Of a stretch of DNA of 64,000 bases, positions 11,905 through 46,022 are shown piece after piece; positions within the stretch are counted from its first letter, which is position 1, and every line of letters starts with the position of its first letter. The notes under the pieces are model-generated. The model made no database searches and was not told the DNA's origin. It saw nothing but the letters and a program-made list of their open reading frames with translations. Origin of the DNA: a virus. The stretch lies in the IMG/VR virus record IMGVR_UViG_3300036772_000425, positions 74,924 to 138,923 of that record; one strand, written 5' to 3'. The position numbers and the translations under genes are program-made.

Positions 11905-11976
11905 AGCAGTCCACGGGACTCGAACCCGTAACCCTCCGGTTGGGAACCGGGAGCGCTACCGTTGCGCCAGGACTGC
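11905..11976 (-). tRNA. tRNA-Gly(CCC)
   Basis: hand-folded cloverleaf: acceptor gcagtcc/ggactgc, T-arm acggg-actcgaa-cccgt, anticodon loop uucccaa. Confidence 0.7.
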
Positions 11977-12062
11977 AAATTCAAAAAGCGCTTTCACCTA
12001 CGGTCTCGGAGGTTCATGGGATCCCCACGATCTTACCGGACAGACAACGGTTACTGGCGCGG

Positions 12063-12134
12063 AGCGAGCGACGGGGTTCGAACCCGTGACAACCAGAATG
12101 GAAACCTGGTGTTCTACCACTGAACTACGCTCGC
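12063..12134 (-). tRNA. tRNA-Gly(UCC)
   Basis: cloverleaf: acceptor gcgagcg/cgctcgc, T-arm acggg-gttcgaa-cccgt, loop uuuccau. Confidence 0.65.
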
Positions 12135-12219
12135 AAAGCATGTTCACCTCCGGCTTGTCCGCTCCGCGACCCTGCGGTCGCATCACCGCCGACAAGCGCT
12201 TGGGTAGTTACTGATGCAG

Positions 12220-12291
12220 AGCAGGCGGCGGGATTCGAACCCGCGATTTCCTCCATGGCAAGGAGGTGCGATACCACTTCGCTACGCCTGC
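12220..12291 (-). tRNA. tRNA-Gly(GCC)
   Basis: cloverleaf: acceptor gcaggcg/cgcctgc, T-arm gcggg-attcgaa-cccgc, loop uugccau. Confidence 0.7.
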
Positions 12292-12314
12292 ATCATTTTT
12301 TGGTGTTGAGTCTG

Positions 12315-12399
12315 CGGTAGGGAGAGGATTCGAACCTCCGGGTCCTTGCGGACCACCGACTTTCCAGATCGGGCACTTAAACCGCTCGTGCACCCTTCC
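12315..12399 (-). tRNA. tRNA-Ser(GGA)-like, class II
   Basis: 85 nt with long variable arm; anticodon loop cuggaaa; acceptor has one mismatch. Confidence 0.5.
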
Positions 12400-12610
12400 G
12401 TTCATTTCATAGTTGGCGCGCCAGTTCGTACTGCTCCTGCTTCAGGATCTGAACTGCCGCCTCACCGATGTGACATGTGCTGCCTTCATTTTCCTCTGCC
12501 TCGCGCAGCATCGCCTTGATCCTCACCGCCCGTTCCCGAAGTTCCCGACCTGGGTTCGGTCGTTGGCTCAGGATCACATCATCCTTCATGCACAGGTAGC
12601 ACATTTCTTC

Positions 12611-12697
12611 GCGGAAGCGGCAGGATTCGAACCTGCGGGACCCTTTCGGGTCCGCCTGTTTTCGAGACAGGTGTCTTCAACCGCTCGACCACGCTTC
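12611..12697 (-). tRNA. tRNA-Ser(CGA), class II
   Basis: acceptor ggaagcg/cgcttcc; T-arm gcagg-attcgaa-cctgc; variable arm gggaccctttcgggtcc; loop cucgaaa. Confidence 0.7.
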
Positions 12698-12987
12698 CGT
12701 TCTCTCACCAGATCCTGTTCGGATCCCGTCCGATCAGACTGGACCACGACTGACCTACCGACATCATACCAACCGAACTTCCCGCAAACCCAGGGATCCT
12801 CGATCCCATGTAGGTCCCACAGACCGTGAAGGTGCACTTCGCACCGCATCCTGAGCAAACGTGCTCATAGACACCCGGGCTGTAGAACATGTGACTGGGA
12901 GGACTGTGATCCGGGCTCATGCACGGTCGATGACGACGCTCCCAATCGGGATCGGAGATCTTACGGGTCGGCATATTCAATCCTTTG

Positions 12988-13074
12988 CAGAGGAGGAGGG
13001 ATTCGAACCCCCGGATCCCTTTCAGGATCGCCTGTTTTCAAGACAGGAGCCATCAACCGCTCGGCCACCCCTCT
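12988..13074 (-). tRNA. tRNA-Ser(UGA), class II
   Basis: 87 nt; long variable arm; anticodon stem cctgt/acagg with loop cuugaaa. Confidence 0.7.
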
Positions 13075-13150
13075 ATGCTTTCTCAATTATGGGGTGCGAT
13101 GCGATGCTGTTCACCCCATACCTTCCCACCCGTAATTTTCTGGTGGGTCG

Positions 13151-13237
13151 CGGAAGCGGCAGGATTCGAACCTGCGGGACCCTTTCGGGTCCTTCCGGTT
13201 AGCAACCGGACGCCATAGGCCTCTCGGCCACGCTTCC
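13151..13237 (-). tRNA. tRNA-Ser(GCU), class II
   Basis: 87 nt; acceptor ggaagcg/cgcttcc; loop uugcuaa; long variable arm. Confidence 0.7.
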
Positions 13238-13584
13238 AAGATCTTCTACCTCATCAGGAGCCGGATCGACGACCTGATCCTCTGACTCATCGTCAGGTGG
13301 GTCTCCCGTGTCCCTGTAGTACGGGTCGCATACGTTTGGGACCCAAACTGAGCTTTCCGTTCCGTCAACCTCGACGGTCTGCACCGTTCCACCCTCACAA
13401 CCTGTCGGTCCTTCTTCGGGCGACCACAACAGGTCACCGTGTTCATGATGAACCAACGACGGTCCTTCATGCCCTGGAACCCGCGTGGCACCAGCAGAGC
13501 AACCCACCAACATGACCATCGTAGGGAACATGTACCGAAGCATGCTGGAACATACACCACGCGCTCCATGTTTCTACAAGGTCT

Positions 13585-13656
13585 GTCAGCGCAGTGGGAT
13601 TCGAACCCACGACATCCACTTCGTAAGGGTGGCGTCCTGCCTCTGGACGATGCGCT
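13585..13656 (-). tRNA. tRNA-Val(UAC)
   Basis: acceptor cagcgca/tgcgctg; T-arm gtggg-attcgaa-cccac; loop cuuacga. Confidence 0.7.
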
Positions 13657-13669
13657 GGCTGTTGTTGTT

Positions 13670-14065
13670 TCAGAGCAGGCGGAGCGTGCTGGTGATCGGA
13701 TCGATCTCCTCGGCGAGGCACGGTCCGAACGCGGCGCACGTTAGGGTTGGGACTCCGTGGAATTCAGTCCTCCCTGCGTCGACGATCGGGTAGACCTCCA
13801 CGTCTGCAAGTTTGGCACGGAGGATCAGCTGCTGCAGTTCCTCCTCGCTGTCGCACCCAGCAACGATCTTCGTGAAGGATCCGGAGAAGAGCCAGGTTGC
13901 CTCCTCGCGTGACAACTTCACCATGAGCTCATCGTCCCGATCCGCCTCATTGTTGTCGACCAGGAATTTCATGGCAGCGTGGGCGACCTGCGAGGCCAGC
14001 TTTCCCTTCCTCATGTTCAGGTCGCGACGGACGACGATAACCTGCTTGACATCGCTCATGATCAT
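13670..14065 (-). CDS. peptidyl-tRNA hydrolase, PTH2 family
   Basis: Trimmed to ATG at 14065 (MIMSDVKQVIVVRRDLNMRKGKLASQVAHAA...TLRLL); GGAGGT RBS 5 nt upstream; the longer ORF would overlap two tRNAs. Confidence 0.75.
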   Translation of the reverse strand: MIMSDVKQVIVVRRDLNMRKGKLASQVAHAAMKFLVDNNEADRDDELMVKLSREEATWLFSGSFTKIVAGCDSEEELQQLILRAKLADVEVYPIVDAGRTEFHGVPTLTCAAFGPCLAEEIDPITSTLRLL

Positions 14066-14085
14066 TACCTCCAAGGGCGATGCTG

Positions 14086-14157
14086 TGTCCCGCGTTGGGT
14101 TCGAACCAACGAGCTCCACCGTGTGAGGGTGGCGATCTACCGCTGATCTAGCGGGAC
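14086..14157 (-). tRNA. tRNA-Val(CAC)
   Basis: acceptor gtcccgc/gcgggac; T-arm gttgg-gttcgaa-ccaac; loop cucacac. Confidence 0.7.
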
Positions 14158-16285: not shown

Positions 16286-16424
16286 GTGACCTGGGTGTGA
16301 GCCTGCTTTCACCTTCCTGGTTCCGCCCAAGGCGGGTGCAACCCACCGCAGGGATTTTCACCCTTATGACAGTTACTCACCGTCAGGGACGCCCACCTCA
16401 CGATGGCTCCGTCCTGACGACCCG

Positions 16425-16498
16425 TCTTCCCGGCGCGATTCGAACGCGCGATCTTACGCTTCGGAGGCGTACGTTCTATCCAGCTGAACTACGGAAAG
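16425..16498 (-). tRNA. tRNA-Arg(CCG)
   Basis: acceptor 7 bp with one G-U; T-arm gcgcg-attcgaa-cgcgc; loop cuccgaa. Confidence 0.7.
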
Positions 16499-16512
16499 AT
16501 TTCAACACTGAG

Positions 16513-16586
16513 CGTCTCTGGGAGGATTCGAACCTCCGACCACCGCGTTAGGAATGCGGTGCTCTATCCAGCTGAGCTACAGAGAC
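16513..16586 (-). tRNA. tRNA-Arg(CCU)
   Basis: acceptor gtctctg/cagagac; T-arm ggagg-attcgaa-cctcc; loop uuccuaa. Confidence 0.7.
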
Positions 16587-16720
16587 AAGCGCACTTTCAC
16601 CTACGGTCCCGGTGGGATTTGCACCCACACCCTCGAAATCATACCTCGATGTGCTCCGTTACACCACGGAACAACTCTTGGCCGGCTGTCCGGCAGTTAC
16701 TCATGTGAGCTGAAGGTACA

Positions 16721-17194
16721 TCAGACGTCCTCGGCCTTACACCGTTCCCTGGTCTCCATGAGCAATTTTCCGAGCCAGTTCTGGCCTGCACCGCGGCACA
16801 CGCCCCAGAAGCGATCGTTCCAGCTGTTTCCCTCGATCAGTTCAGCTTCTTCGGTCGCCAGCAGCATCGCCCTGAGCAACGGGTTCTTGAACTTCTCACT
16901 GAGACACATTCGCATCACCTCCACCTTTCGAGCGTCCCAATCGGGAGCAAGCTGGCAGGATTGACCGAGACGCTTTGCGACACCTGGGCTTCGAGCCTCC
17001 CGGATCATCTTCTGCGTGACGGGATCTGAGGACTTTGCAGCCTGGTACGCATGCTCCACGCTCGGGTACCGAACACCGTCGAGCCAGATCGATGCCTCGT
17101 GGAAGTTGCTGAGGAACCCGAACGTTCCCGTGAAGGAATCGATCACGGGTTCAGCGCATGGCAGTTCAGGTTGCCTCGTGCTGTCCATGTTCAT
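16721..17194 (-). CDS. NADAR (YbiA-like, DUF1768) domain protein
   Basis: 157 aa; FGFLSNFHEASIWLDGVRYPSVEHAYQAAK...RFWGV matches the NADAR/YbiA signature. Confidence 0.7.
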   Translation of the reverse strand: MNMDSTRQPELPCAEPVIDSFTGTFGFLSNFHEASIWLDGVRYPSVEHAYQAAKSSDPVTQKMIREARSPGVAKRLGQSCQLAPDWDARKVEVMRMCLSEKFKNPLLRAMLLATEEAELIEGNSWNDRFWGVCRGAGQNWLGKLLMETRERCKAEDV

Positions 17195-17685
17195 GCACCT
17201 GTCGATGTTGAATGGTGTACCACGTATGGGATGCAGGCAACGATGACCCTGCGGACCATGTCAGCAGTTCCCTTGCTGGACTCCAGGTTGTCGTGGAAGA
17301 CCAGACATTCATCGAGCGGTTCATCTTGCCTGTTCTCGGTGTCAATCATCAGCTGGTTCCTGATCGGGCCAGCGGCCCGCCCGTGCTTGCTCCAATCGGC
17401 TGGGTACCCCCGGACGATGAATCCTAGCGTCTCAGCGACGACGGCACAGGTGTTGTCGGCTCCCTTGCATGCACCGTGCACCAGGATGGTGCCTGGTCGG
17501 TACACCTTGAGCGCCTCGACGATCGACTGCACGTCAGACCAGTTTCGATCACCCGTGATCAGGATCTTCCTGACCGACCGGTCCTCGGGCAGCCTCCTAC
17601 GCTCCTCGGGGTCGCGCCGATCGTTGTGCCGGCGATCGGGCTTGACGCGCCTGATCGTGCCTCCACGTCGAGCTTCATTGTCCAT
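17191..17685 (-). CDS. SLOG/DprA-like Rossmann-fold nucleotide-binding protein (DUF2493-like)
   Basis: Trimmed to ATG at 17685 to avoid the tRNA; motif ILITGDRNWSD...VHGACKGADN...AAGPIRNQLM; ATGA overlap with the NADAR gene. Confidence 0.45.
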   Translation of the reverse strand: MDNEARRGGTIRRVKPDRRHNDRRDPEERRRLPEDRSVRKILITGDRNWSDVQSIVEALKVYRPGTILVHGACKGADNTCAVVAETLGFIVRGYPADWSKHGRAAGPIRNQLMIDTENRQDEPLDECLVFHDNLESSKGTADMVRRVIVACIPYVVHHSTSTGA

Positions 17686-17687
17686 GG

Positions 17688-17761
17688 TGCCCCCGGCAGG
17701 GTTCGAACCTGCGACCTTCTGTTTCGTAGACAGACGTGGTATCCTGCTCCACCACGGAGGC
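17688..17761 (-). tRNA. tRNA-Arg(ACG)
   Basis: acceptor gcccccg/cggaggc; T-arm gcagg-gttcgaa-cctgc; loop cuacgaa. Confidence 0.7.
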
Positions 17762-17770: not shown

Positions 17771-18169
17771 TCACCAACCGAAACGGTCCTGGCGCTCGCG
17801 ATCATTCTGCATGATCAGGGACAGGTTGCCGGCTTCTTCTGCTTCTCGCTGGCGTGAGTTCTCCTCACGCGTGCGACGTTCGTGTTCGTCAGACCGCGCG
17901 AGCTCCTTTGCGTAATTCTCTTGCTGGCGAGCCCGAGCGAGCCCAGCGGCGTAACCACGATTGTACGCAACCTCTTCGATCTCTGCCCTGGTCTCTGCCT
18001 CCGTCTTTGTCCGGACAGGTTCGACGGTTTCATCGATGATTTTTTGCCATCGGTCCACGGAGGGTTCGTCCACGTGGCGTTCGTTCCTCATCTGGATGTT
18101 TTCAAGAGCTGTTTTGATCTTTTGTTTCTTTGGAGCGGTCATCAGCATCACCAGTTCCCATCGTACCAT
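17771..18169 (-). CDS. hypothetical coiled-coil/charged protein (start uncertain)
   Basis: 132-aa ORF, R/E-rich. Confidence 0.3.
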   Translation of the reverse strand: MVRWELVMLMTAPKKQKIKTALENIQMRNERHVDEPSVDRWQKIIDETVEPVRTKTEAETRAEIEEVAYNRGYAAGLARARQQENYAKELARSDEHERRTREENSRQREAEEAGNLSLIMQNDRERQDRFGW

Positions 18170-18817
18170 CGGGACAGGCGAAACTTCATGCCCGTCCGAT
18201 GGTCAGTTACCAGGTCGTCCTGTGTCCTGTACGTTCGAACCTTGTCACCGCGTTGACCTGAACCCACCTGGGTCTTCCGTTCTGATTCACGAAGCCTGTT
18301 CATCCTTTCGGATTCAACGTCATGGATCCTGGCTGCAAGGACCTTCAGGGCGGTGGCCCTGTTCTGGTGCTGCGACCTTTCGTTGTCTATCCTGACCTGG
18401 ATTCCTGTGGGGCGATGAACAGCGATCACGCACGACTCTGTCTTGTTCCTGTTCTGCCCGCCCGACCCGGTGCCGCGTGCTGTCGTCACGACAACATCCT
18501 TCTGATCCAGGTGAAAACCAGCAGACATCTCAGGATCCATCACCGCGACGGTGACCGTCGATGTTTGGACCCTACCACGCTTCTCGTTGGGAGGGACCCG
18601 CTGCCATCGGTGACCGCCTGCCTCGTTAGCGTACAGTGACCTGCATCCGGGCCCCTCTACCGTGAAAACGACCTGACCGGGCCTTTGATCGATCAGCTGG
18701 ACGTCAAAGACCCCTCTGGGCCGCAACGTTGCAGTACACGCGAAGCTGATCCTTGACAAGGAGCTTCGCATCGTCGCCGCCCTCGGCGGCCCGGATCTCG
18801 ATGATGATCGTTTCCAT
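18148..18817 (-). CDS. class-I release factor RF2-like (domains 2-4, GGQ motif) with +1 programmed frameshift at CUU UGA C
   Basis: Frame 0 from ATG 18817 (METIIIEIRAAEGGDDAKLL...AAQRGL) stops at UGA 18706-18704 within cagAGGGGuCUUUGAC; the +1 frame continues DVQLIDQRPGQV...SGGQNRNKTESCVIAVHRPTGIQV; the joined product aligns contiguously with RF2 domain 2. Confidence 0.65.
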
Positions 18818-19586: not shown

Positions 19587-19591
19587 ATGGG

Positions 19592-19664
19592 TACCGGGAG
19601 AGGGACTTGAACCCTCGCTAACCCTGCTTATGAGACAGGTGCTCTGCCGCTGAGCTATCCCGGC
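19592..19664 (-). tRNA. tRNA-Met(CAU) (elongator, initiator or Ile2 not distinguished)
   Basis: T-arm gaggg-acttgaa-ccctc; anticodon stem ccugu/gcagg; loop cucauaa. Confidence 0.7.
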
Positions 19665-19668
19665 ATGA

Positions 19669-19923
19669 TCATGAGAACCAACTACGAACCCTGGTCGCAA
19701 TGCGCCACACGAGCTCCCTGAAGGGGCCCGGATGCATGTCGAATGAGGGACACTCGACGAACTTCCCCCAAGGACGCAGGTCCAGCCCGCGCTCGTAACC
19801 GAGGGCACATCCGCATGCTGCGAAGTAGCTGCCTGGGCAGTTTACGCAACGATGCCACTGGAAATCTTCCGTCTCCATGGGACGGATGAACCAGCCCAGG
19901 ATCATGTACCACACTCTTTTCAT
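19669..19923 (-). CDS. small Cys-rich hypothetical protein
   Basis: 84-aa ORF between two tRNAs; CVNCPGS...CGC. Confidence 0.3.
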   Translation of the reverse strand: MKRVWYMILGWFIRPMETEDFQWHRCVNCPGSYFAACGCALGYERGLDLRPWGKFVECPSFDMHPGPFRELVWRIATRVRSWFS

Positions 19924-20002
19924 GTGCCAAAGGTGGGACTCGAACCCACACGCTCACGCGCTCCATTCTAAACGGAGTGTGTCTGCCATTTCACCACTCT
20001 GG
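19924..20002 (-). tRNA. tRNA-Leu(UAG), class II
   Basis: 80 nt; acceptor with one G-U; T-arm gtggg-actcgaa-cccac; loop uuuagaa; long D-loop and variable region. Confidence 0.65.
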
Positions 20003-20016
20003 CGCTGTCTGATCCT

Positions 20017-20511
20017 CTACGGACGTGTTCGGGCCACTAGCTCCGATGATGATTGCACCTTGTCATTCCCGCCGACCCCGAAAACCACGCTGCAACCGAT
20101 CCTCGTGCATGCCTCAAATTCGGGCACGACGGCTGAGCTCGATCGATCACCGCCCTTCGCAAAGACGTTCGGCAGCAGTGCCTCGATCGCGCCCGTCACG
20201 AACTGGCCACCATCGTCCCATGTGACCACGTAATCCACGCCCCTGATCGCTGAGACCAGCTCGAGCCTTTCCTCGACCTTCATGAAGGAGTAACCCTTCT
20301 TGCGCGCCAGGAAACCATCACCGTTGACGATCACGATCAGGATGCCGCGTTCTCCCTTCAAACGGGCGGCCTCCTGGATGCAGCGAAGGTGTCCCACGTG
20401 GATGGGATCGAAACCACCCGAGGTTGTGACCACCGTCAGGTCGGGATCTGATTCCCGCTTCGATCGGACGATCCCTGCAGCACGTTCGATGCTCACGATC
20501 TCTGCGTTCAT
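20017..20511 (-). CDS. cytidylyltransferase-fold nucleotidyltransferase (HxGH motif)
   Basis: Trimmed to ATG 20511; VVTTSGGFDPIHVGHLRCIQEAARL matches the (H/T)xGH class-I nucleotidyltransferase motif (TagD/RfaE-II/NMNAT-like). Confidence 0.6.
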   Translation of the reverse strand: MNAEIVSIERAAGIVRSKRESDPDLTVVTTSGGFDPIHVGHLRCIQEAARLKGERGILIVIVNGDGFLARKKGYSFMKVEERLELVSAIRGVDYVVTWDDGGQFVTGAIEALLPNVFAKGGDRSSSAVVPEFEACTRIGCSVVFGVGGNDKVQSSSELVARTRP

Positions 20512-20512
20512 G

Positions 20513-20586
20513 TGCCCCCGGTAGGATTCGAACCTACAACCTCGCGCTTCGAAGGCGCTTGCTCTGATCCGTTGAGCTACGGGGGC
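20513..20586 (-). tRNA. tRNA-Arg(UCG) (tentative)
   Basis: acceptor gcccccg/cgggggc perfect; T-arm gtagg-attcgaa-cctac; anticodon stem gcgc/gcgc with loop cuucgaa. Confidence 0.6.
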
Positions 20587-20939
20587 GTGGAAATGAGGCG
20601 GAGATCTAAGCGGAGTTCTGTCGAGGACGATCATTCATCTTGGGTGCACGTCACCGTGCACCTCTAGCAACAACCCGCATGCTCGGGCGAACAACCCTCG
20701 AGCGCATGCTGTTTGTCTTGCTCCGGGAGGGGCCCCATACCGTCCGCATTGCTGCGTCCGTGGTGGGCTCTTACCCCACCGTTTCAACCTTGCCTGATCC
20801 CTTGCGGGCCATCGGCGGTCTGTTTTCTGTTGAGCCTTCCGACACCTTACGGTGCCCAGTGATTACCTGGTACCCTGTTCTAGGGAGCTCCGACTTTCCT
20901 CTACGCTCTGCAGCGCAGCGATCGTCTTTCCCTGCCTCG

Positions 20940-21023
20940 TGCCATCGGGGGGAGTCGAACCCCCACGCCCTTGCGAGCATCGGCTTCTGAGGCCGACGTG
21001 ACTGCCAGTTCCACCACAATGGC
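20940..21023 (-). tRNA. tRNA-Leu(CAG), class II
   Basis: 84 nt; T-arm ggggg-agtcgaa-ccccc; anticodon stem tcggc/gccga; loop cucagaa. Confidence 0.7.
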
Positions 21024-21030
21024 ATTGTGA

Positions 21031-21531
21031 TCAATCGTGATCACGTCGTGATTGAGAAATCTTAGCTCTCGATTCTTCTGTGTGATGTCGACCTTTGAAT
21101 CCATGAGTGGGTGTCAGAGCATGACAGTTTGGACACAAGTACCGAAGGTTGGTAGGATCAGGATTTGAACTGTTACCATCGATGTGATCGATTTCAAGCT
21201 CAAGAGGTTTTCCATTCCACTCACCGGTGTTTCCGCACTTCACACATCGATATTCACGATCAAGTTCTTGAAGAACTCGACGCAATATCGTCGTACGAAC
21301 TCCGCGTTTAATCGTATGGATGTTTTGGGCGGTGATCTTTTCGGGTCCCCCACGGTGACGCTCACCAGAATTTGCTGAACGCCCCAAGAAGTGAGTTACA
21401 TCGAGCTGAAGTGCTTCAATTTCACGCTTGACAGCATGCCAAGCAGAACCAGAAGTCATTCCCATACGTAGAACAACTTCACGATAACTCTTTGAGGAAG
21501 CCACAACAACGATCAATTTCTCTCGATCCAT
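21031..21531 (-). CDS. HNH homing endonuclease
   Basis: Trimmed to ATG 21531 (MDREKL...); CVKCG...ELEIDHIDGNSSNPDPTNLRYLCPNCH. Confidence 0.65.
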   Translation of the reverse strand: MDREKLIVVVASSKSYREVVLRMGMTSGSAWHAVKREIEALQLDVTHFLGRSANSGERHRGGPEKITAQNIHTIKRGVRTTILRRVLQELDREYRCVKCGNTGEWNGKPLELEIDHIDGNSSNPDPTNLRYLCPNCHALTPTHGFKGRHHTEESRAKISQSRRDHD

Positions 21532-21573
21532 GAGGCAATGGTACTGTTCTTTTAGTACTTGTATTTGCCTAAG

Positions 21574-21659
21574 TGCCATCGAGGGGATTCGAACCCCTAC
21601 ACCCATTACGGGTACAACGTTCTCAACGTTGCGCGCCTGCCTAATTTCGCCACGATGGC
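21574..21659 (-). tRNA. tRNA-Leu(GAG), class II
   Basis: 86 nt; acceptor gccatcg/cgatggc; T-arm agggg-attcgaa-cccct; loop uugagaa. Confidence 0.7.
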
Positions 21660-21664
21660 ATGGG

Positions 21665-22139: not shown

Positions 22140-22143
22140 ATCG

Positions 22144-40992: not shown

Positions 40993-41035
40993 GTGCTGGA
41001 TCCTACCATCAGGCAGATGTCGGTTGCACCGCAGG

Positions 41036-41108
41036 CTGGCGAGGCCGGATTCGAACCGGCGTCTCCGGGGTCAAAGCCCGGGGTCCTGAACCGCTGGACG
41101 ACCCGCCC
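41036..41108 (-). tRNA. tRNA-Gln(UUG) with G1-A72 mismatch
   Basis: T-arm gccgg-attcgaa-ccggc; anticodon stem ccggg/cccgg; loop cuuugac; D-arm gtcc/ggac. Confidence 0.65.
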
Positions 41109-41250
41109 AGGTTTTCAACAACGTTGGAATGCCACGATGATCAAGAAGGCAAGCATCGGCGAAACACTGAGCAGCATCCTGCCCAATGAACCGAACCTGG
41201 TGCGAGCGCTTGGGTTGATCATGGTCCCTTTTCTACGTTCCAACACGTTG

Positions 41251-41322
41251 CTGGCCTGGAAGGATTCGAACCTTCGTAACCCGGGTCAGAGCCGGGTGCC
41301 CTAGCCGTTAGACGACAGGCCA
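41251..41322 (-). tRNA. tRNA-Gln(CUG)
   Basis: acceptor tggcctg/caggcca; T-arm gaagg-attcgaa-ccttc; loop cucugac. Confidence 0.7.
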
Positions 41323-41328
41323 ATGCGA

Positions 41329-41415
41329 TCACCGTAAACGGAATTGAACCGTTGCGCGCAGTAGCAGCCGCGAGCCAGACTTCCGTGAGTCCACGTGCTT
41401 TCCTCGAATGCGGTG
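41329..41415 (-). ncRNA. class-II-length tRNA-like element with a 6-nt anticodon loop
   Basis: 87 nt; acceptor 6 of 7; T-arm aacgg-aattgaa-ccgtt; variable arm cgcg/cgcg; hairpin ggact-cacgga-agtct; no canonical D-arm. Confidence 0.4.
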
Positions 41416-41420
41416 ATCGG

Positions 41421-41491
41421 CACCAGGAGCAGGAATCGAACCCGCATTAGCCGTTTTGGAGGCGGCAGTCCTACCGTTGAACGATCCTGGT
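41421..41491 (-). tRNA. tRNA-Trp(CCA)
   Basis: acceptor accagga/tcctggt; anticodon loop cuccaaa, as in the E. coli Trp loop. Confidence 0.7.
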
Positions 41492-41505
41492 GTGTCAGCG
41501 AATGG

Positions 41506-41578
41506 CACCTCCAACGGGATTCGAACCCGTATCTTCCGCTAGACAGGCGGATGTCCTAAGCCGTTGGACGATGAAGGT
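41506..41578 (-). tRNA. tRNA-Asp(GUC) (tentative; U37)
   Basis: T-arm acggg-attcgaa-cccgt; anticodon stem tccgc/gcgga; loop cugucua; D-arm gtcc/ggac. Confidence 0.6.
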
Positions 41579-42143
41579 ATGAACTTGCAGCTCTCTTCGA
41601 GCTCTGTTTCTGTTTCCGGGTCTGGGTGTGATTTTCGATCCCTGAAGTACTGAAGCGATTCTTTGGTTCCGAGGATCCTTTGGCACAGATCGCAGCTGCA
41701 CACCCGTAGCTGTTTCTTGAATTTCGGCTCACGCCTGTCAGACCTTGACCTGCTCATGGTGCCGATCCCTGGTTCTGATCCAGGCCAGGCCTCCTGATGC
41801 CGTCTGCAGGGATTCTCTCCCTGGTACGATCAGCTTCGGTGTGGTCCCCGCCGATGTGACGGGTGGGTTTCCCAGCTCCCTCGATCGGTGTGAAGTTCTG
41901 CCCAACGAGCCGGGTCGACACCCGTTGGGAGCGCTTGATCAGCGCTGGCGCCATCACCTGCAAGGACCTTTCCGTCCCCCGACCCGATGGGTTACTGGCG
42001 CGCCGTAATCAGTACGTACCTACAAGTGAAAAATGCCCGGACACAAGTGGGAATTCTCACAGTTAGAATTCATTCAGAATGCTGCAGCGATTCTGATCGC
42101 ATTGTGCCCATCGTCGTAGGCTTACCACGTACTGATCTCGTCG

Positions 42144-42217
42144 TGGAGCACCAGGGATTCGAACCCTGCGCCTCCTGCGTGCAAGGCAGGCGCTCTACCC
42201 AAATGAGCTAGTGCCCC
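42144..42217 (-). tRNA. tRNA-Ala(UGC) with G3:U70
   Basis: acceptor ggggcac pairs gtgctcc (G3-U70); loop cuugcac. Confidence 0.75.
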
Positions 42218-42270
42218 TCTATGATGAGGTCAGCGCTGTTGCGTACCTCATCATCGGCGTTTCTCGCCGG

Positions 42271-42347
42271 TGGAGCTGGAGGGAGTCGAACCCTCGGTCG
42301 TGTGAGGTCCATTGTCGGCTTTCTCAAACGCCCTGCCTTTCAGCCCC
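42271..42347 (-). ncRNA. tRNA-like element with Ala-type G3:U70 acceptor but no foldable anticodon arm
   Basis: acceptor ggggctg/cagctcc; T-arm gaggg-agtcgaa-ccctc; exhaustive 5-7-5 hairpin scan of the interior found none. Confidence 0.35.
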
Positions 42348-42429
42348 GTTGGTTGGGAACAGGATCATGGTCTCCCGCTCCCCGATCGTTGAAGCACCTA
42401 CGACCATGACACGTACCCACGATCGTGGA

Positions 42430-42502
42430 GCACACCGGACTTGAACCGGTCACCTCTTCGTTGCGAACGAAGCGCTCTCCCAGATGAGCTAGTGCCCCAA
42501 GC
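42430..42502 (-). tRNA. tRNA-Ala(CGC) with G3:U70
   Basis: T-arm accgg-acttgaa-ccggt; anticodon stem cttcg/cgaag; loop uucgcaa. Confidence 0.75.
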
Positions 42503-42525
42503 ACAGCAATTTTCAGCAACGTGGA

Positions 42526-42598
42526 GCCAGTCGGACTTGAACCGACCACCTCCTGCATGCCATGCAGGCGCTCTCCCGGATGAGCTATGGCCCCGAAA
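42526..42598 (-). tRNA. tRNA-Ala(GGC) with G3:U70
   Basis: T-arm gtcgg-acttgaa-ccgac; anticodon stem cctgc/gcagg; loop auggcau. Confidence 0.75.
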
Positions 42599-43331
42599 CC
42601 TGCGTGATCGTATCGATCTTTCCTCCACCGCCCCTGATCTTCGACATCCCGAGGTCGATCAGAACAAGCGTTCCATCGTCCCTGACCATCATGTTACCGG
42701 CGTGGTAATCGTGGAAGTCGATGCCCAATTCGGTCAAGGTGTTGAAGATGTCACGGAGACCGTACTTCTTGACCAGATCATTCCAGCTGGAATTGATGCT
42801 TCTGGCGTACTCCTGTGCCTTCGGCGAGTTCAGGTTGTCTCCAAACTTCTTCTTCACCTGGCCGAGGATGTACTCCTTGGTGAGCTTCTTGGCCTCATCC
42901 CAAGAACCCCCTGCCCTCTTGATCCAGATCGGGAGCCCCGTCGCGACGAGCGCATCATTGAACTCCTTCGCTGCTTCTGCGGGTAACGGTTTCAGCTTTT
43001 CCTGGACGATGCCGTAGTTGTCGGTGTCGCCGAACTTGACGACAGCGAAGTACCGACAGACGTTCTGCACGTCCTTGCCCACCAGTGTCGCGGCAGCGCG
43101 AGCTTCCTGTGCATCGTTGGTCACCTTGAGCACCTTGTCACCGAACTCGAAGGCGGTGCCTCGGGTGCCGGTGCCCAGAACCTGGAGTGAATCAACCTTG
43201 CTGGGGGACAGCCCCAACCGAGCGAGTCCCTTGGGGAACTTCTTGAGGAGCTCCTTGGCGTCTGAGTCCGACACCGGTCCTCCATCCTCTAGGATCAAGG
43301 ATCGCAAGCGTCCCATGGTTGTTCGGATCAT
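42585..43331 (-). CDS. protein-kinase-like fold protein (Ser/Thr kinase or aminoglycoside phosphotransferase-like)
   Basis: 248 aa; Gly-rich loop LGTGTRGTAFEF; VLKV; catalytic HDYHAGNMMV; LIDLG; 3' end overlaps tRNA-Ala(GGC) by about 14 nt. Confidence 0.55.
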   Translation of the reverse strand: MIRTTMGRLRSLILEDGGPVSDSDAKELLKKFPKGLARLGLSPSKVDSLQVLGTGTRGTAFEFGDKVLKVTNDAQEARAAATLVGKDVQNVCRYFAVVKFGDTDNYGIVQEKLKPLPAEAAKEFNDALVATGLPIWIKRAGGSWDEAKKLTKEYILGQVKKKFGDNLNSPKAQEYARSINSSWNDLVKKYGLRDIFNTLTELGIDFHDYHAGNMMVRDDGTLVLIDLGMSKIRGGGGKIDTITQVSGP

Positions 43332-43344
43332 ACGACTATCTATG

Positions 43345-43417
43345 TGCGCCCGAAGGGACTCGAACCCTTGACATCCATCGCGTCAGGATGGTGTTCTAGC
43401 CGCTGAACTACGGGCGC
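43345..43417 (-). tRNA. tRNA-Val(GAC)
   Basis: acceptor gcgcccg/cgggcgc; T-arm aaggg-actcgaa-ccctt; loop cugacgc. Confidence 0.7.
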
Positions 43418-43621
43418 ATTGTCCGGTCTCTCCCGGATGTCCTGAAAACCTCACCTGAGCTGATCACCTCTTCTTGTGATGGTAGTGCTTGCGCCAGCAG
43501 GGTCGACACATGTAGAATCGACCGAGCAGGTCAGAAGCAATCCTGCAGAACCTGCACATCTTACGCCTCCTTTCACGATGAAAGGGCGTTACGTATCTTG
43601 GATCATTCTCCCACCTTCGGT

Positions 43622-43690
43622 TGCGGATCCCGGAGTCGCGCCGGATTCTCAAGCTTATGAGGCTTGCGAGTTGCTCTTTCTCTTATCCGC
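43622..43690 (-). ncRNA. tRNA-Met(CAU)-like element with non-canonical T-loop (possible pseudo-tRNA)
   Basis: acceptor gcggatc/tatccgc 6 of 7; anticodon hairpin caagc-ttatgag-gcttg identical in loop to the adjacent tRNA-Met; T-loop agtcgcg lacks the TTCGA pattern. Confidence 0.35.
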
Positions 43691-43692
43691 GG

Positions 43693-43766
43693 AAGCGGGT
43701 GCGGGATTTGAACGCCGCGACCTTCAGCTTATGAGGCTGACGAGCTACCACTGCTCTAACCCGCTA
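43693..43766 (-). tRNA. tRNA-Met(CAU), second copy
   Basis: acceptor agcgggt/acccgct perfect; anticodon stem tcagc/gctga; loop cucauaa; T-stem has a G-G mismatch. Confidence 0.6.
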
Positions 43767-43777
43767 TGAATCTTCGT

Positions 43778-43850
43778 GAACCTGGAGGGACTCGAACCCC
43801 CGGCCAGCACTGCTTAAAAGGCAGCCGTTCTGCCACTGAACTACAGGTTC
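43778..43850 (-). tRNA. tRNA-Lys(UUU)
   Basis: acceptor gaacctg/caggttc; anticodon loop cuuuuaa, as in the E. coli Lys loop; D-arm gttc/gaac. Confidence 0.7.
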
Positions 43851-43857
43851 ATGGTGG

Positions 43858-43979
43858 AGCGTGGTGAAGGATTCGAACCTTCATTTCCGGCTGCGATTGC
43901 CGGCGTTATTTCCCATTCAGGCTTCCGGAGCGAGGTGCGCACCTCGATTTCCCTGGTCGTGAACGTCTACTAACCACGC
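43858..43979 (-). ncRNA. elongated tRNA-like element (~122 nt)
   Basis: perfect acceptor gcgtggt/accacgc 115 nt apart; canonical T-arm gaagg-attcgaa-ccttc; interior hairpins ccggc-tgcgatt-gccgg and cgaggtg-cg-cacctcg. Confidence 0.4.
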
Positions 43980-43983
43980 ACGG

Positions 43984-44062
43984 TGTGCGTAACAGGAATT
44001 GAACCTGTGACCTCCGGCACCCGGTTAACCAGGGCGGTGCTCTTTCTCTGAGCTATACGCAC
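43984..44062 (-). ncRNA. tRNA-like element with tetraloop in place of an anticodon loop
   Basis: acceptor gtgcgta/tacgcac 7/7; T-arm acagg-aattgaa-cctgt; D-arm gctc-tttctct-gagc; anticodon position is cccgg-ttaa-ccagg. Confidence 0.4.
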
Positions 44063-44064
44063 GG

Positions 44065-44136
44065 TGGGGGAGGGTGGACTTGAACCACCGACCTTCGTCC
44101 TCAACGGACGACGCTCTTTCTCTGAGCTACTCCCCC
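44065..44136 (-). ncRNA. tRNA-like element, copy A of a duplicated pair (anticodon loop cguugag with G33, or a 5-nt loop)
   Basis: acceptor gggggag/ctccccc; T-arm ggtgg-acttgaa-ccacc; D-arm gctc-tttctct-gagc; body identical to the element at 45379. Confidence 0.45.
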
Positions 44137-44240
44137 ATGTTTTCGCTGTTCACCTGCCGCTTCCGGACTTTCACCGGACCTTACGAATTCGAAGTTCGCC
44201 GTGCGTGTACCACACTGCCGCGCTTGGGTTACTGGGACGG

Positions 44241-44315
44241 TGGGAGAGGAAGCGATCGCATCTTCGACCTCCAAGATTTCAAATCCTGGCGCTCTGCTAC
44301 CTGAGCTACTCTCCC
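44241..44315 (-). ncRNA. tRNA-like element with non-canonical T-loop and 6-bp/7-nt anticodon arm reading UGA
   Basis: acceptor gggagag/ctctccc 7/7; D-arm gctc/gagc; anticodon hairpin ccagga-tttgaaa-tcttgg; T-loop gatcgca. Confidence 0.35.
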
Positions 44316-44439
44316 GTTCCATGACGGTACCAGGTTGTGCGCCCGAGTACAATCAGAATCGAAGCATTTTTCACCTTCACGGTTCTGTACCGTCTGGCTC
44401 ACCCTTTGCCCTCACGGGCATGTAGGCAGAAATTGAATT

Positions 44440-44500
44440 CCTGCTGGAGCCCATGCTGGGATTCGAACCCAGTCCTGAATGAATGGTTACTGTTCTGCCA
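44440..44500 (-). ncRNA. tRNA fragment-like (T-arm ctggg-attcgaa-cccag without a matching 5' acceptor)
   Basis: canonical T-arm, but no complementary acceptor strand found within 100 nt. Confidence 0.2.
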
Positions 44501-44505
44501 CGAAG

Positions 44506-44581
44506 CGGGGGAGGATGGGCTTGAACCACCGTCTTCGGACCTATTGCGGTCCGACGCTGAAGTCTACTGAGCTACTCCCCC
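44506..44581 (-). ncRNA. tRNA-like element with 8-nt (or 6-nt) anticodon loop
   Basis: acceptor gggggag/ctccccc; T-arm gatgg-gcttgaa-ccacc; anticodon hairpin cggac-ctattgcg-gtccg. Confidence 0.4.
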
Positions 44582-44643
44582 AAAACAGCTGCGGTTCCCT
44601 GAAGGAACACGAACGGAACGATTTCCCGCTCTCACAACCACTG

Positions 44644-44716
44644 CGGATCCGGTGGGACTCGAACCCACGGCAATCAGGGTAAGGGCCTGACGTTCTAGCC
44701 GCTGAACTACGGATCC
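44644..44716 (-). tRNA. tRNA-Lys(CUU) (tentative; C33 in my fold)
   Basis: acceptor ggatccg/cggatcc 7/7; T-arm gtggg-actcgaa-cccac; anticodon stem tcagg/cctga; loop cccuuac. Confidence 0.6.
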
Positions 44717-44758
44717 ATGCGAACGAGAGCTACATTGAAAGCGTAGGACCACGTTCGG

Positions 44759-44829
44759 CTGTAACGGAAGGAATCGAACCTTCTTCCAAGGGTCTAACAG
44801 GCCCGTGCTCGCCATTGAGCTTCGTTACA
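44759..44829 (-). ncRNA. tRNA-like element, anticodon arm not foldable
   Basis: acceptor tgtaacg/cgttaca 7/7; T-arm gaagg-aatcgaa-ccttc; D-arm gctc/gagc; interior lacks any 5-7-5 hairpin. Confidence 0.4.
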
Positions 44830-45418
44830 ATGCTCTCCAGTCATTTCTGACTGAAATGTCCAGACCCAAGTCTTGGAGATCAGTGCCAGACAGGACGATC
44901 AGTTTCTTTGTGAATTGTGACCACTTTGCTTCATCCTTGAGCGTCTTCCAACCCTTCACTTCGACATAACAGTCTAGTTCAGGCAGGTAGAAATCTGGGA
45001 CGTAGCGTCTTGGTTTGTCAAACTCATACGTGAAACTCTGTTTGTTCCTGACCCAGGGAACCTGATGCTGATCGAACCAGATGGCTAGCTTCAGTTCCCA
45101 CGTACCATCGAATGATTCGTTTCGATACGAATATCGCCTACTACGTGCAAACGAATTGTGCCATGTGCCCGCTTCAACACGTTGGCTGATCGTCCTTGAC
45201 AATTTTGCTCTGGTTTCAGGAGACAAGAACTTTCCAGTCATGCGAAACGAAACTTTTTTGTTGATTTCGTCACGTTTTGGGTTATTCTTGCAGCGAACTG
45301 CGTGTCCTCCCAGACTTTGCCCTTTCTGGAATTCACGATCACAGAATTGACATGTAAACACATGTGATTCTACATCGGCGCGGGAGGGTGGACTTGAACC
45401 ACCGACCTTCGTCCTCAA
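44825..45418 (-). CDS. putative homing endonuclease: C2H2 zinc finger + PD-(D/E)XK nuclease motif (start uncertain; annotated ATG lies inside a tRNA-like element)
   Basis: 197 aa; FTCQFCDREFQKGQSLGGHAVRC; C-terminal RYVPDFYLPELDCYVEVKGWK; AT-richer than the flanks. Confidence 0.5.
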   Translation of the reverse strand: MRTKVGGSSPPSRADVESHVFTCQFCDREFQKGQSLGGHAVRCKNNPKRDEINKKVSFRMTGKFLSPETRAKLSRTISQRVEAGTWHNSFARSRRYSYRNESFDGTWELKLAIWFDQHQVPWVRNKQSFTYEFDKPRRYVPDFYLPELDCYVEVKGWKTLKDEAKWSQFTKKLIVLSGTDLQDLGLDISVRNDWRAL

Positions 45419-45450
45419 CGGACGACGCTCTTTCTCTGAGCTACTCCCGC
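45379..45450 (-). ncRNA. tRNA-like element, copy B of the duplicated pair
   Basis: acceptor gcgggag/ctcccgc 7/7; body identical to 44065..44136, including the D-arm and aberrant anticodon arm. Confidence 0.45.
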
Positions 45451-45456
45451 ATCTGC

Positions 45457-45525
45457 TCCGGCGCAGGGATTCGAACCCCGATGAGCTGGTAAACAGCCAG
45501 CCGTCCTCCCGTTGAACGACACCAG
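45457..45525 (-). ncRNA. tRNA-Asn(GUU)-like element lacking a pairing acceptor stem
   Basis: T-arm caggg-attcgaa-ccccg; anticodon hairpin gctgg-taaacag-ccagc gives loop cuguuua; no complementary 5' strand found. Confidence 0.3.
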
Positions 45526-45531
45526 AATGTG

Positions 45532-45602
45532 CTCCCAGAGCTGGCCTTGCACCAGCACCTCCGTGCGTTCTAGCACGGCGCTCTGCCTTGAGCTACCCGG
45601 GA
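45532..45602 (-). ncRNA. tRNA-like element with non-canonical T-loop and 6/8-nt anticodon loop
   Basis: acceptor 7 bp including two G-U; T-arm-like gctgg-ccttgca-ccagc; hairpin ccgtgc-gttcta-gcacgg; D-arm gctc-tgcctt-gagc. Confidence 0.35.
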
Positions 45603-45648
45603 ATGTTGGAACGTAGGTTGTCAAAGAAGTGAGGATTGAACCTCACGG

Positions 45649-45732
45649 TGGGGTACCACGGTATCGAACCGTGCGGGCCTTTTGGACGACAGATTTACAG
45701 TCTGTCCCGTCTCCTTAGCGGTCTAGTACCCC
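45649..45732 (-). tRNA. tRNA-Tyr(GUA), class II
   Basis: 84 nt; acceptor ggggtac/gtacccc 7/7; T-arm cacgg-tatcgaa-ccgtg; anticodon stem acaga/tctgt; loop cuguaaa; long variable arm. Confidence 0.7.
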
Positions 45733-45947
45733 GTGATTTGTGTCGAAACGTATCGTCGCCGGTTCCTTTCGGTTCCGGCGACACCCTGACGTTCAGCTTC
45801 TGCTTTCGCGTTCAGGTGCTCCGGAAGCGGACAGAGCACCTATGTGCTCGTCACCGCCCAGTATTATCCTGGGCAACGGCATACTGCCATTGCTTGGTCT
45901 GTTTGGTGATAGCTGCGTTGAAGTTCATGTTGATTCTCAGTGAATCG

Positions 45948-46022
45948 TGGGACTGGGCGGAATCGAACCGCCGACTTCCCGCTCATCAGACGGGCGCTCT
46001 AAAACCCCTGAGCTACAGTCCC
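45948..46022 (-). tRNA. tRNA-Ile(GAU)
   Basis: acceptor gggactg/cagtccc 7/7; T-arm ggcgg-aatcgaa-ccgcc; loop cugauga; D-arm gctc-taaaacccct-gagc. Confidence 0.7.

Follow-up and report, generated by a model that had tools for sequence, protein, structure and literature searches.

Does a virus that carries tens of transfer RNA (tRNA) genes leave the maturation of their products entirely to its host, or does it bring part of the processing machinery with it? This question is raised by a stretch of 64,000 nucleotides (nt), positions 74,924 to 138,923 of the IMG/VR virus record IMGVR_UViG_3300036772_000425 (hereafter the window), in which a gene for the RNA of ribonuclease P (RNase P) lies among tRNA genes. 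RNase P counts as a housekeeping enzyme universal to cells, and the maturation of phage tRNAs, for which T4 is the textbook case, is taught as host-dependent; T4 carries eight clustered tRNA genes with a homing endonuclease gene in the cluster, depends on the RNase P of its host and repairs tRNAs with Rnl1 and Pnkp, and some of its tRNA genes do not encode CCA while some abut, so that an RNase P cut separates neighbours. We consider it likely that the window holds a phage tRNA-supply module with an RNase P ribozyme of its own for 5' processing, a reading in which we infer the steps beyond gene content.

An RNase P RNA gene and its candidate substrates

The gene at the center of this reading is the following:

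20591-20938 (-), RNase P RNA, bacterial class A, 348 nt, full length (Rfam RF00010, 255.3 bits, model positions 1-367 of 367; gathering score of the model, 100 bits)

It lies inside the interval to which an initial annotation, made by a model from the letters alone, had assigned a large tRNA repertoire, and was unmentioned there. The first base of the RNA directly follows the 3' end of tRNA-Leu(CAG) (20939, as called by ARAGORN), and its last base stands 4 nt ahead of the first base of tRNA-Arg(UCG) at 20586. At 119 of the 141 highly conserved positions of the RF00010 consensus the residue is identical, and 4 of the 22 differences represent two base pairs of the P4 helix that are changed on both sides. 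The catalytic core is kept (P4 with its bulged U, formed by GAGGAAAGUCGGAG paired with CUCCGCUU; J18/2; and the ACAGAA region), and the L15 motif GCGGGUU is found at RNA positions 261-267; the P4 pseudoknot with bulged U and the GGU of L15 are features shared with Escherichia coli M1 RNA and with class A RNAs as modeled by RF00010. A P4 variant specific to phages was considered and ruled out, as the GGA/UCC form is common in cellular rnpB genes, mostly those of Clostridia.

With regard to candidate substrates, ARAGORN called 56 tRNA genes between 10567 and 46022, on the minus strand only. Upstream of these genes, U is found at position -1 in 33 of 56 leaders (background, 19.5%) and A at position -2 in 38 (background, 22.5%), and the dinucleotide AU directly precedes 24 of the genes. 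Bacterial RNase P favors U(-1), with A(-2)U(-1) representing the optimal cleavage-site context, and the 3' RCC of the substrate pairs with the GGU of L15 in bacterial RNase P RNA (PMC10731613). Twelve of the gaps between tRNA genes are 15 nt or shorter, among them gaps of 0 and 1 nt and a 2-nt overlap, and at such distances the one cut that RNase P makes at the downstream tRNA sets the 3' trailer of the upstream one as well. Scans of the window for promoters and terminators found nothing above chance; since no minus-strand terminator-like site was found inside the arrays, between 10 and 26 kb, transcription into long same-strand RNAs is likely.

At the 3' end, C74 is encoded in all 56 genes and a full CCA in only six or seven, namely Arg-ACG (17685), CAU (19588), Glu-UUC (21661), two Pro-CGG genes (23733 and 23967), Asp (41503) and probably Phe (22922); the earlier statement that none of the genes encodes CCA is thus incorrect. 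C74 is also present in 321 of 323 tRNAs from 41 related viral loci (L177-L217), at any GC content from 0.35 to 0.63, with position 75 a C in just 39% and position 76 a purine in 91%. The C74 pattern was noted in L045, L032 and L039 too. Proteobacterial phages, by comparison, encode the full CCA in their tRNA genes. C74 could possibly be the pairing partner of the RNase P L15 GGU, or possibly a signal that halts 3' exonucleases before the CCA is completed. Its use as a mark of arrays that carry an RNase P RNA was ruled out, as it is clade-wide in relatives that lack the P4 motif. A clade-wide C74 followed by non-conserved positions 75 and 76 represents a lead on the 3' maturation of CCA-less phage tRNAs.

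RNase P RNAs in other viral tRNA arrays

A scan of IMG/VR with the 5' motif of P4 returned 52 loci, and in approximately 20 of these the motif lies inside a gap of 290 to 410 nt between tRNA genes of large arrays. Seventeen further full-length or near full-length RNase P RNAs inside tRNA arrays were identified in IMG/VR with Rfam RF00010 (108-300 bits), and the contigs that carry them range from 7.7 to 463 kb; several of the RNase-P-bearing loci show full-length, strong matches to phage-only PHROG families, and in most of the 17 the ribozyme is 0-6 nt from the flanking tRNA on at least one side. One diverged relative of the window, L045, has the same order, i.e., tRNA-Leu(CAG), RNase P RNA and tRNA-Arg(UCG), with an RNase P RNA 77% identical to that of the window and with neighbors that include a NADAR protein and a 153-aa open reading frame (ORF), 66% and 42% identical, respectively, to those of the window. 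A second diverged relative, the metagenome contig L228, shares the arrangement: tRNA-Leu(GAG) adjoins the RNase P RNA, tRNA-Arg(UCG) follows farther on, and an RF1-like protein is 60% identical to its counterpart in the window.

An alignment of 16 phage RNase P RNAs showed compensatory change in 50 of the 60 base pairs predicted by RNAalifold. For the P4 pseudoknot, 8 bp were specified by hand and compared with 500 shuffles: P4 is paired in 128 of 128 cells across all 16 sequences, three of the pairs vary (GGA/UCC, GGG/CCC, CGG/CCG, CGG/UCG, CCG/CGG, CGA/UCG and CCC/GGG), and 14 cells are changed on both sides, a level of covariation reached by none of the 500 shuffles, while sliding one strand by a single column lowers pairing to 48-60%. 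The GGU of L15 is present in 16 of 16. Judged from the alignment, this pattern is that of a functional RNA under selection and not of a decaying passenger. Some of the phage forms are shorter than the 348 nt of the window RNA (288 nt in L002 and L031, 297 nt in L009, 310-314 nt in L005 and L041, and 321-325 nt in L007 and L020); alignment gaps indicate that these lack part of the specificity domain, with P4, L15 and the other core motifs kept.

The cellular rnpB genes that share the 18-mer (120 loci, mostly Clostridia) have 0-3 tRNA genes within 8 kb, and the cellular copies recovered were never inside tRNA arrays and resemble the window RNA in short stretches only; the window RNA is nearer to other phage copies (77% identity over 339 nt) than to the cellular ones (at most approximately 79% over approximately 140 nt). 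A related 5' half also occurs in twelve high-GC metagenome contigs that have no tRNA genes, and their nearest match is the rnpB of a metagenome-assembled genome of Actinomycetota; together with an actinobacterial-type CCA-enzyme fragment in the window (see below), this similarity provides a weak hint of an actinobacterial origin or host.

The tRNA repertoire and its decoding capacity

The initial annotation had described an exceptionally large, strand-biased repertoire of about 50 canonical tRNAs, folded by hand, in four minus-strand clusters. We compared ARAGORN, as an independent cloverleaf caller, with the covariance model Rfam RF00005 (gathering score, 29 bits), which gave 54 calls, likewise on the minus strand only; the two agree on 53 genes. 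The four clusters were recovered (10567-14157, 16424-17761, 19588-25473 and 41034-46022), as was the strand bias, and most calls were kept by the covariance model, with no wholesale reassignment of anticodons on refolding. The genes are as follows, each called by both programs unless stated otherwise:

10567-10652 (-), tRNA-Leu(CAA), class II, 86 nt, atypical D arm; ARAGORN, Rfam 32.9 bits
11903-11976 (-), tRNA-Gly(CCC)
12061-12134 (-), tRNA-Gly(UCC)
12219-12291 (-), tRNA-Gly(GCC)
12314-12399 (-), tRNA-Ser(GGA), class II; ARAGORN, Rfam in a permissive run only
12611-12698 (-), tRNA-Ser(CGA), class II
12987-13074 (-), tRNA-Ser(UGA), class II
13150-13237 (-), tRNA-Ser(GCU), class II
13585-13657 (-), tRNA-Val(UAC)
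14085-14157 (-), tRNA-Val(CAC)
16424-16498 (-), tRNA-Arg(CCG)
16512-16586 (-), tRNA-Arg(CCU)
16604-16673 (-), tRNA-like, T loop UGCAAAU (G55), possible anticodon AUG; Rfam only, 41.2 bits
17685-17761 (-), tRNA-Arg(ACG), CCA encoded
19588-19665 (-), CAU tRNA (elongator Met or Ile2), 3' end ACCCA or CCCA
19924-20003 (-), tRNA-Leu(UAG), class II
20512-20586 (-), tRNA-Arg(UCG), 5' end 4 nt past the RNase P RNA 3' end
20939-21023 (-), tRNA-Leu(CAG), class II, 3' end abutting the RNase P RNA 5' end
21573-21659 (-), tRNA-Leu(GAG), class II
21661-21738 (-), tRNA-Glu(UUC), 3' end CCCA
21893-21967 (-), tRNA-Thr(UGU)
22065-22139 (-), UAA tRNA, short class I variable region, A73, possible short tRNA-Leu
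22143-22215 (-), tRNA-Gly(UCC), second copy
22304-22375 (-), tRNA-Gly(GCC), second copy
22485-22558 (-), tRNA-Thr(GGU)
22684-22757 (-), tRNA-Cys(GCA)
22922-22998 (-), tRNA-Phe(GAA), CCA probably encoded
23000-23072 (-), tRNA-His(GUG), no encoded G at -1
23074-23148 (-), tRNA-Pro(UGG)
23589-23660 (-), tRNA-Thr(CGU)
23733-23809 (-), tRNA-Pro(CGG), CCA encoded
23896-23968 (-), tRNA-Pro(GGG)
23967-24044 (-), tRNA-Pro(CGG), second copy, CCA encoded, 2-nt overlap with the next gene
25053-25125 (-), tRNA-Val(CAC), second copy
25141-25217 (-), tRNA-Pro(UGG), second copy
25401-25473 (-), tRNA-Glu(CUC)
41034-41108 (-), tRNA-Gln(UUG)
41250-41322 (-), tRNA-Gln(CUG)
41419-41491 (-), tRNA-Trp(CCA)
41503-41578 (-), tRNA-Asp(GUC), CCA encoded
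42143-42217 (-), tRNA-Ala(UGC), G3:U70
42425-42498 (-), tRNA-Ala(CGC), G3:U70
42521-42594 (-), tRNA-Ala(GGC), G3:U70
43344-43417 (-), tRNA-Val(GAC)
43691-43765 (-), CAU tRNA (Met or Ile2), A1-U72, discriminator U73
43776-43850 (-), tRNA-Lys(UUU)
43982-44062 (-), Thr(GGU)-like, 81 nt, mismatched anticodon stem, long unpaired variable region
44063-44136 (-), tRNA-Gln(UUG), copy 2
44239-44315 (-), UGA tRNA-like, class I shape, A73, T loop UGCGAUC (G55); ARAGORN only
44505-44581 (-), tRNA-like, 8-nt anticodon loop CGCAAUAG, no U33
44643-44716 (-), tRNA-Lys(CUU)
44757-44829 (-), tRNA-Asn(GUU)
45377-45450 (-), tRNA-Gln(UUG), copy 3, 96% identical to the gene at 44063
45455-45526 (-), tRNA-Asn(GUU), second copy
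45531-45602 (-), tRNA-like, 8-nt anticodon loop CUAGAACG, 4-bp T stem, T loop UGCAAGG
45647-45732 (-), tRNA-Tyr(GUA), class II, weak D stem; ARAGORN only
45947-46022 (-), tRNA-Ile(GAU)

The tRNA-Ser(GGA) gene at 12314 is absent from the strict Rfam list and reaches 39.8 bits in a more permissive run; the genes at 44239-44315 and 45647-45732 have no Rfam match, and the one at 16604-16673 was called by Rfam alone. The arrays begin at 10567 with tRNA-Leu(CAA), 1.3 kb before the start of 11905 given initially. Every anticodon listed initially was reproduced, and that list had omitted Asn(GUU), present twice, Leu(CAA), the short Leu(UAA) and several duplicates. The G3:U70 pair reported for all three Ala tRNAs is seen in their acceptor strands, and the class II structure reported for Ser, Leu and Tyr tRNAs is found in Ser, Tyr and four of five Leu tRNAs (CAA, UAG, CAG and GAG), at lengths of 80-88 nt. 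The closest pair of genes, the Gln-UUG genes at 44063 and 45377, is 96% identical, and every other pair is at most 83% identical; with just this one recent duplicate pair, the tRNA count is not an artifact of assembly repeats. Small ORFs and HNH homing endonucleases are scattered among the arrays.

The set comprises 43 distinct anticodons and represents all 20 amino acids. Under standard wobble rules, 59 of the 61 sense codons are readable; the two without a reader, AGA and AUA (21 and 11 uses, respectively, among 13,070 codons from 56 window ORFs), are among the rarest, and the initial description of the repertoire as near codon-complete thus stands. AUA might be readable as well, if one of the CAU tRNAs is a lysidine-modified tRNA-Ile2; both CAU tRNAs are without the hallmarks of a bacterial initiator (positions 1 and 72 mismatched, and a trio of G:C pairs at the base of the anticodon stem). 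No CUA, UUA or UCA anticodon is found among the ARAGORN calls, which led us to reject suppressor tRNAs and an altered genetic code.

An unlikely alternative to the tRNA-supply module is that the tRNAs do no more than tune codon usage, supplementing codons that the phage overuses, with the RNase P RNA an incidental passenger. The tRNAs of phage XacN1 match codons that are more frequent in the phage than in its host (PMC5852040), and the window ORFs show a strong bias in GC content at third codon positions (GC3), both of which agree with such tuning. The set in the window, however, is near complete rather than selective: cognate tRNAs are present for codons as little used as CUA, UUA, GUA and AAA (3%, 1%, 4% and 12% of their families, respectively), and gene copies do not track usage, with three Gln(UUG) genes even though CAA represents 17% of Gln codons. 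Since rare-codon tRNAs are present and copy number departs from usage, full tRNA supply fits better than selective tuning; the idea of a passenger, in turn, conflicts with the conserved synteny and structural covariation of the ribozyme.

Putative functional decoders are those genes in which the anticodon loop is 7 nt long and contains U33, the T loop has U54-U55-C56, and the identity elements fit the anticodon. The 56 calls exceed the initial estimate of about 50 canonical tRNAs, and approximately ten of these calls are atypical, leaving roughly 46-47 canonical genes with all three features. Those that depart from them include the genes at 44505 and 45531 (8-nt loops), at 16604, 44239 and 45531 (G55), and at 22065 and 44239 (class I shape despite a Leu or Ser anticodon); the gene at 44239-44315 is unlikely to be a Ser acceptor. 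The tRNA-like gene at 44505-44581 is 77-78% identical to the Gln(UUG) genes. In tRNA-His(GUG) (23000-23072, minus strand), the discriminator is C73 and the base at -1 is U, so that the bacterial-type G(-1) is not encoded. Among RNase-P-bearing arrays from IMG/VR, tRNAs with Leu anticodons are often of class I length (75-78 nt; arrays L005, L041, L002, L031, L039, L038, L015 and L050), with the long variable arms of Ser and Tyr tRNAs kept.

One further RNA-like element lies between tRNA-Ala(UGC) and tRNA-Ala(CGC):

42268-42347 (-), lookalike of the tRNA-like domain of transfer-messenger RNA (tmRNA), 80 nt (Rfam tmRNA, 39.8 bits, below the gathering score of 47)

It aligns to the two ends only of the tmRNA model RF00023. 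Its acceptor, GGGGCUG...CAGCUCC, includes G3:U70; a T arm is also present, and CC comes after A73. Neither a tag reading frame nor pseudoknots were found in it, and ARAGORN calls no tmRNA in the window. With a score below gathering and no mRNA-like domain, it does not qualify as a tmRNA, and it could be a tmRNA remnant or a minimal alanine-accepting tRNA-like RNA. Complete tmRNAs are carried by two relatives, L025 and L047.

Element type, proposed pathway and known systems

The window looks like part of an uncultivated large-phage genome. It matches 58 PHROG families, and its phage-like genes encode a T4-type Rnl1, an Rnl2-type ligase, a deoxynucleoside monophosphate (dNMP) kinase, endonuclease VII, a sigma factor, a NADAR protein and an ATP-dependent DNA ligase (phrog_114, 2e-102); an AAA ATPase with a VWA partner is also encoded, and 41 relatives of this ATPase (41-64% identity) are found on viral contigs in IMG/VR, the longest of 324 kb, and most have tRNA arrays no more than 10 kb away. 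Identity to any cultured phage was ruled out: 20 kb compared by megablast with 50,697 phage records gave no match, two large plus-strand ORFs had no tblastn match, and the best protein identities to cultured phages are approximately 30%. XacN1, which also has 56 tRNA genes, was ruled out as a relative, as there is no similarity and its 56 genes are 2 x 28, all encoding CCA. The sole other copy of the window sequence found is a 13.9-kb Logan contig, and JGI metagenomes gave no exact match to the contig of the window.

Genes with a possible bearing on tRNA repair, translation or array structure are the following:

7117-8382 (-), T4 Rnl1-type RNA ligase, candidate tRNA repair enzyme (PF09511, 33.7 bits, cut-off 28.3; phrog_562, 5.7e-38; TIGR02308 below cut-off)
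9305-10006 (-), third RNA-ligase-like ORF, weak (PF09414, 26.3 bits, just below the cut-off of 27)
16721-17194 (-), NADAR-domain ORF between tRNA clusters (8.4e-27; weak resemblance to T4 gp30.3; the 66% identical neighbor in L045)
18148-18771 (-), truncated RF1-like release factor, 207 aa (Pfam RF-1 and PCRF; TIGR00019)
21031-21606 (-), HNH/NUMOD3 homing-endonuclease-like ORF between tRNA genes (Pfam)
23139-23585 (-), C2H2 zinc-finger and HNH endonuclease ORF within an array, low GC3 (Pfam; GC3)
28927-29793 (-), Rnl2-type RNA ligase (PF09414, 54.4 bits; phrog_548, 7e-25)
53302-54258 (-), C-terminal half (RNA-binding and HD) of an actinobacterial-type CCA-adding enzyme (TIGR02692, 1.6e-42; Pfam HD)
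54465-54935 (-), ribosomal protein L7/L12-like ORF (PF00542, 63.7 bits; TIGR00855 below cut-off)

The RF1-like ORF covers model residues 164-332 of 361 and is without the N-terminal domain; it comprises the end of PCRF and the GGQ RF-1 domain, an architecture like that of PrfH, yet scores better against RF1, and its homolog in L228 lies in the same neighborhood. The CCA-enzyme fragment scores 145.7 bits against a TIGR02692 cut-off of 438.8 and covers model positions 209-414 of 466, with no PolyA_pol (PF01743) nucleotidyltransferase head in this ORF or in the ORFs upstream; that its HD part supplies end-healing for tRNA repair is speculation, and Pnkp is not among the Pfam or PHROG matches listed for the window. 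The L7/L12-like ORF has an N-terminal extension and adjoins this fragment. ORFs of the endonuclease VII and HNH families are scattered (31746-32939 on the plus strand; 23139-23585, 21031-21606, 47312-47803 and 11002-11328 on the minus strand), and in 31746-32939 and 23139-23585 GC3 is 0.37-0.48, well below that of their neighbors, as expected of mobile homing endonuclease genes. Over positions 54000-64000, GC content rises from 0.55-0.62 to 0.65-0.70, with ORF GC3 of 0.85-0.95, which suggests that this region is a compositionally distinct module.

In the pathway that we propose, the arrays would be transcribed as long polycistronic precursors, and RNase P would cut each tRNA 5' end, carried out first by the host enzyme and then by the phage RNA, probably with host RnpA, so that the phage RNA would add processing capacity or substitute for the host RNA. 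The 5' cut of tRNA-Arg(UCG) would also free the 3' end of the ribozyme, and 3' processing of tRNA-Leu(CAG) would free its 5' end; as the flanking tRNA ends define its own ends, the ribozyme would be released by reactions that it catalyzes. The 3' ends of the tRNAs would be cut back as far as C74, a nucleotidyltransferase, presumably that of the host, would add the rest of the CCA, and the Rnl1- and Rnl2-type ligases may reseal tRNAs nicked in the anticodon loop by host anticodon nucleases. The predicted outcome is a near-complete elongator tRNA pool, backed by sufficient processing capacity, that would sustain phage translation when host tRNAs are depleted, cleaved or poorly matched, with charging, initiation and the ribosome still supplied by the host. 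The host independence proposed initially thus goes too far: no aminoacyl-tRNA synthetase is found among the Pfam matches listed for the 107 window ORFs, no initiator tRNA and no RnpA are found in the window, and the CCA-adding enzyme is a fragment without its head.

Several observations weigh against this pathway. RnpA (PF00825) is not among the Pfam matches listed for the 107 ORFs or in individual scans of the window, and phmmer with E. coli and Bacillus subtilis RnpA queries gave a best E value of 0.39 over the same 64 kb; as none is encoded in the window, the RNA is probably partnered by host RnpA, a holoenzyme make-up that we infer. The approximately ten atypical tRNA-like genes may be non-decoding. 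The P4 motif is found in 0 of the 41 IMG/VR contigs that share the ATPase gene, and the ribozyme is therefore accessory rather than essential to such arrays. Finally, no capsid, portal, terminase or tail gene was recognized in the window, and the assignment to a phage therefore rests on non-structural genes and on the IMG/VR classification.

Two of these observations also bear on other explanations. The lack of a recognized phage rnpA, which obliges the holoenzyme to take a host protein, would fit a decoy or takeover factor that titrates host RnpA or competes with the host RNA and so halts host tRNA maturation, as would the loss of part of the specificity domain in the L020, L007, L002, L009, L005 and L041 RNAs (alignment gaps). 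We consider this very unlikely, as the catalytic core and the L15 GGU are conserved and covary, which is needless for a pure protein sponge, and as the phage tRNA genes carry optimal RNase P cleavage signals. The missing structural genes would fit a megaplasmid or a chromosomal tRNA island resembling the horizontally acquired tRNA arrays of mycobacteria, in which HNH endonucleases are also found; gene sets for translation like those of huge phages also occur on large putative plasmids (PMC7162821), and extra RNase P RNA homologs flank an endonuclease gene in Mycobacterium austroafricanum (PMC9569102). Such an element is improbable given the 58 PHROG families, including T4-type Rnl1, dNMP kinase, endonuclease VII and the DNA ligase, the relatives on 41 IMG/VR viral contigs, the full-length matches of RNase-P-bearing loci to phage-only families, and the recovered cellular rnpB genes, which were never within tRNA arrays. 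The preferred reading remains a phage tRNA-supply module with its own ribozyme.

With regard to known systems, XacN1 carries 28 tRNA genes in each terminal repeat, 56 in total (PMC5852040), complete huge-phage genomes carry up to 67 (PMC7162821), and a 536-kb megaphage carries 74, with tRNAs and one tmRNA the only RNAs detected by Rfam (PMC8172020). The initial placement of the window at the upper end for any phage therefore needs qualification, as 56 genes fall in the upper range and the published 67 and 74 exceed them. Arrays of huge phages (XacN1, Al-Shayeb et al. 2020, Lui et al. 2021) resemble the window in their tens of clustered tRNA genes, small ORFs and HNH endonucleases, and in the co-occurrence of genes for translation and tRNA repair; by contrast, all 28 tRNA genes of the XacN1 repeat encode CCA, versus 6-7 of 56 here, and the 56 genes of the window all differ, carry 43 anticodons and span 35 kb without a repeat. 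T4 resembles the window in its clustered, partly CCA-less and abutting tRNA genes, its homing endonuclease inside the cluster, and its Rnl1 and Rnl2, and differs in having 8 tRNAs and using host RNase P, as opposed to 56 and an RNase P RNA of its own, and in having Pnkp, which the matches listed for the window do not include. Large tRNA arrays of huge phages are thus already known; the embedded, conserved RNase P ribozyme is the added element.

RNase P RNA is unmentioned in the XacN1 paper and in two broad surveys of jumbo and huge phages (0 occurrences; PMC5852040, PMC7162821) and has 0 occurrences in a 2026 jumbo-phage review, and no description of a phage-encoded RNase P RNA was found in the full-text literature searched, in which subscription journals are thinly covered. 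Compared with cellular class A RNAs, the window copy lies on a phage-like element, with gaps of 0 and 4 nt to tRNA genes and no rnpA nearby. Among related cases, theta (hepatitis delta virus-like) ribozymes are likewise phage ribozymes that lie next to phage tRNA genes, in whose processing they have been implicated (PMC10879173); these are small, self-cleaving and act in cis, while the window RNA, judging from its type, would act in trans with multiple turnover on tRNA 5' ends. In M. austroafricanum and Mycobacterium sp. YC-RL4, extra rnpB-like genes that neighbor an endonuclease gene were attributed to horizontal transfer, and some extra mycobacterial homologs have altered specificity domains; the published description concerns bacterial chromosomes and puts these genes neither in a phage nor between tRNA genes (PMC9569102). 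Plastid and mitochondrial rnpB genes offer a parallel, in that a dependent small genome keeps the RNA beside tRNA genes, takes the protein from elsewhere and may have reduced forms (PMC6330054, PMC5626475); organellar genes are vertically inherited endosymbiont remnants, whereas that of the window would be a viral accessory gene, and the likeness is one of analogy only.

Beyond this locus, we regard it as an even call whether phage RNase P ribozymes constitute a widespread viral RNA class, present in the tRNA arrays of several unrelated large-phage lineages, including forms of 288-325 nt, and excised by the tRNA-processing reactions that they catalyze; together with C74 and A(-2)U(-1) leaders, they would then form a 5'-maturation system of the phage's own that borrows only the protein subunit of the host. 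If the reading proposed here is true, the parts of the translation system known from viruses would extend to a catalytic RNA that recurs in at least 19 viral or metagenomic contigs, including the window, and the short forms would provide natural minimal class A variants for structure-function work on RNase P. It would also raise the question of whether the capacity for precursor tRNA processing, or host interference with it, limits phage translation.

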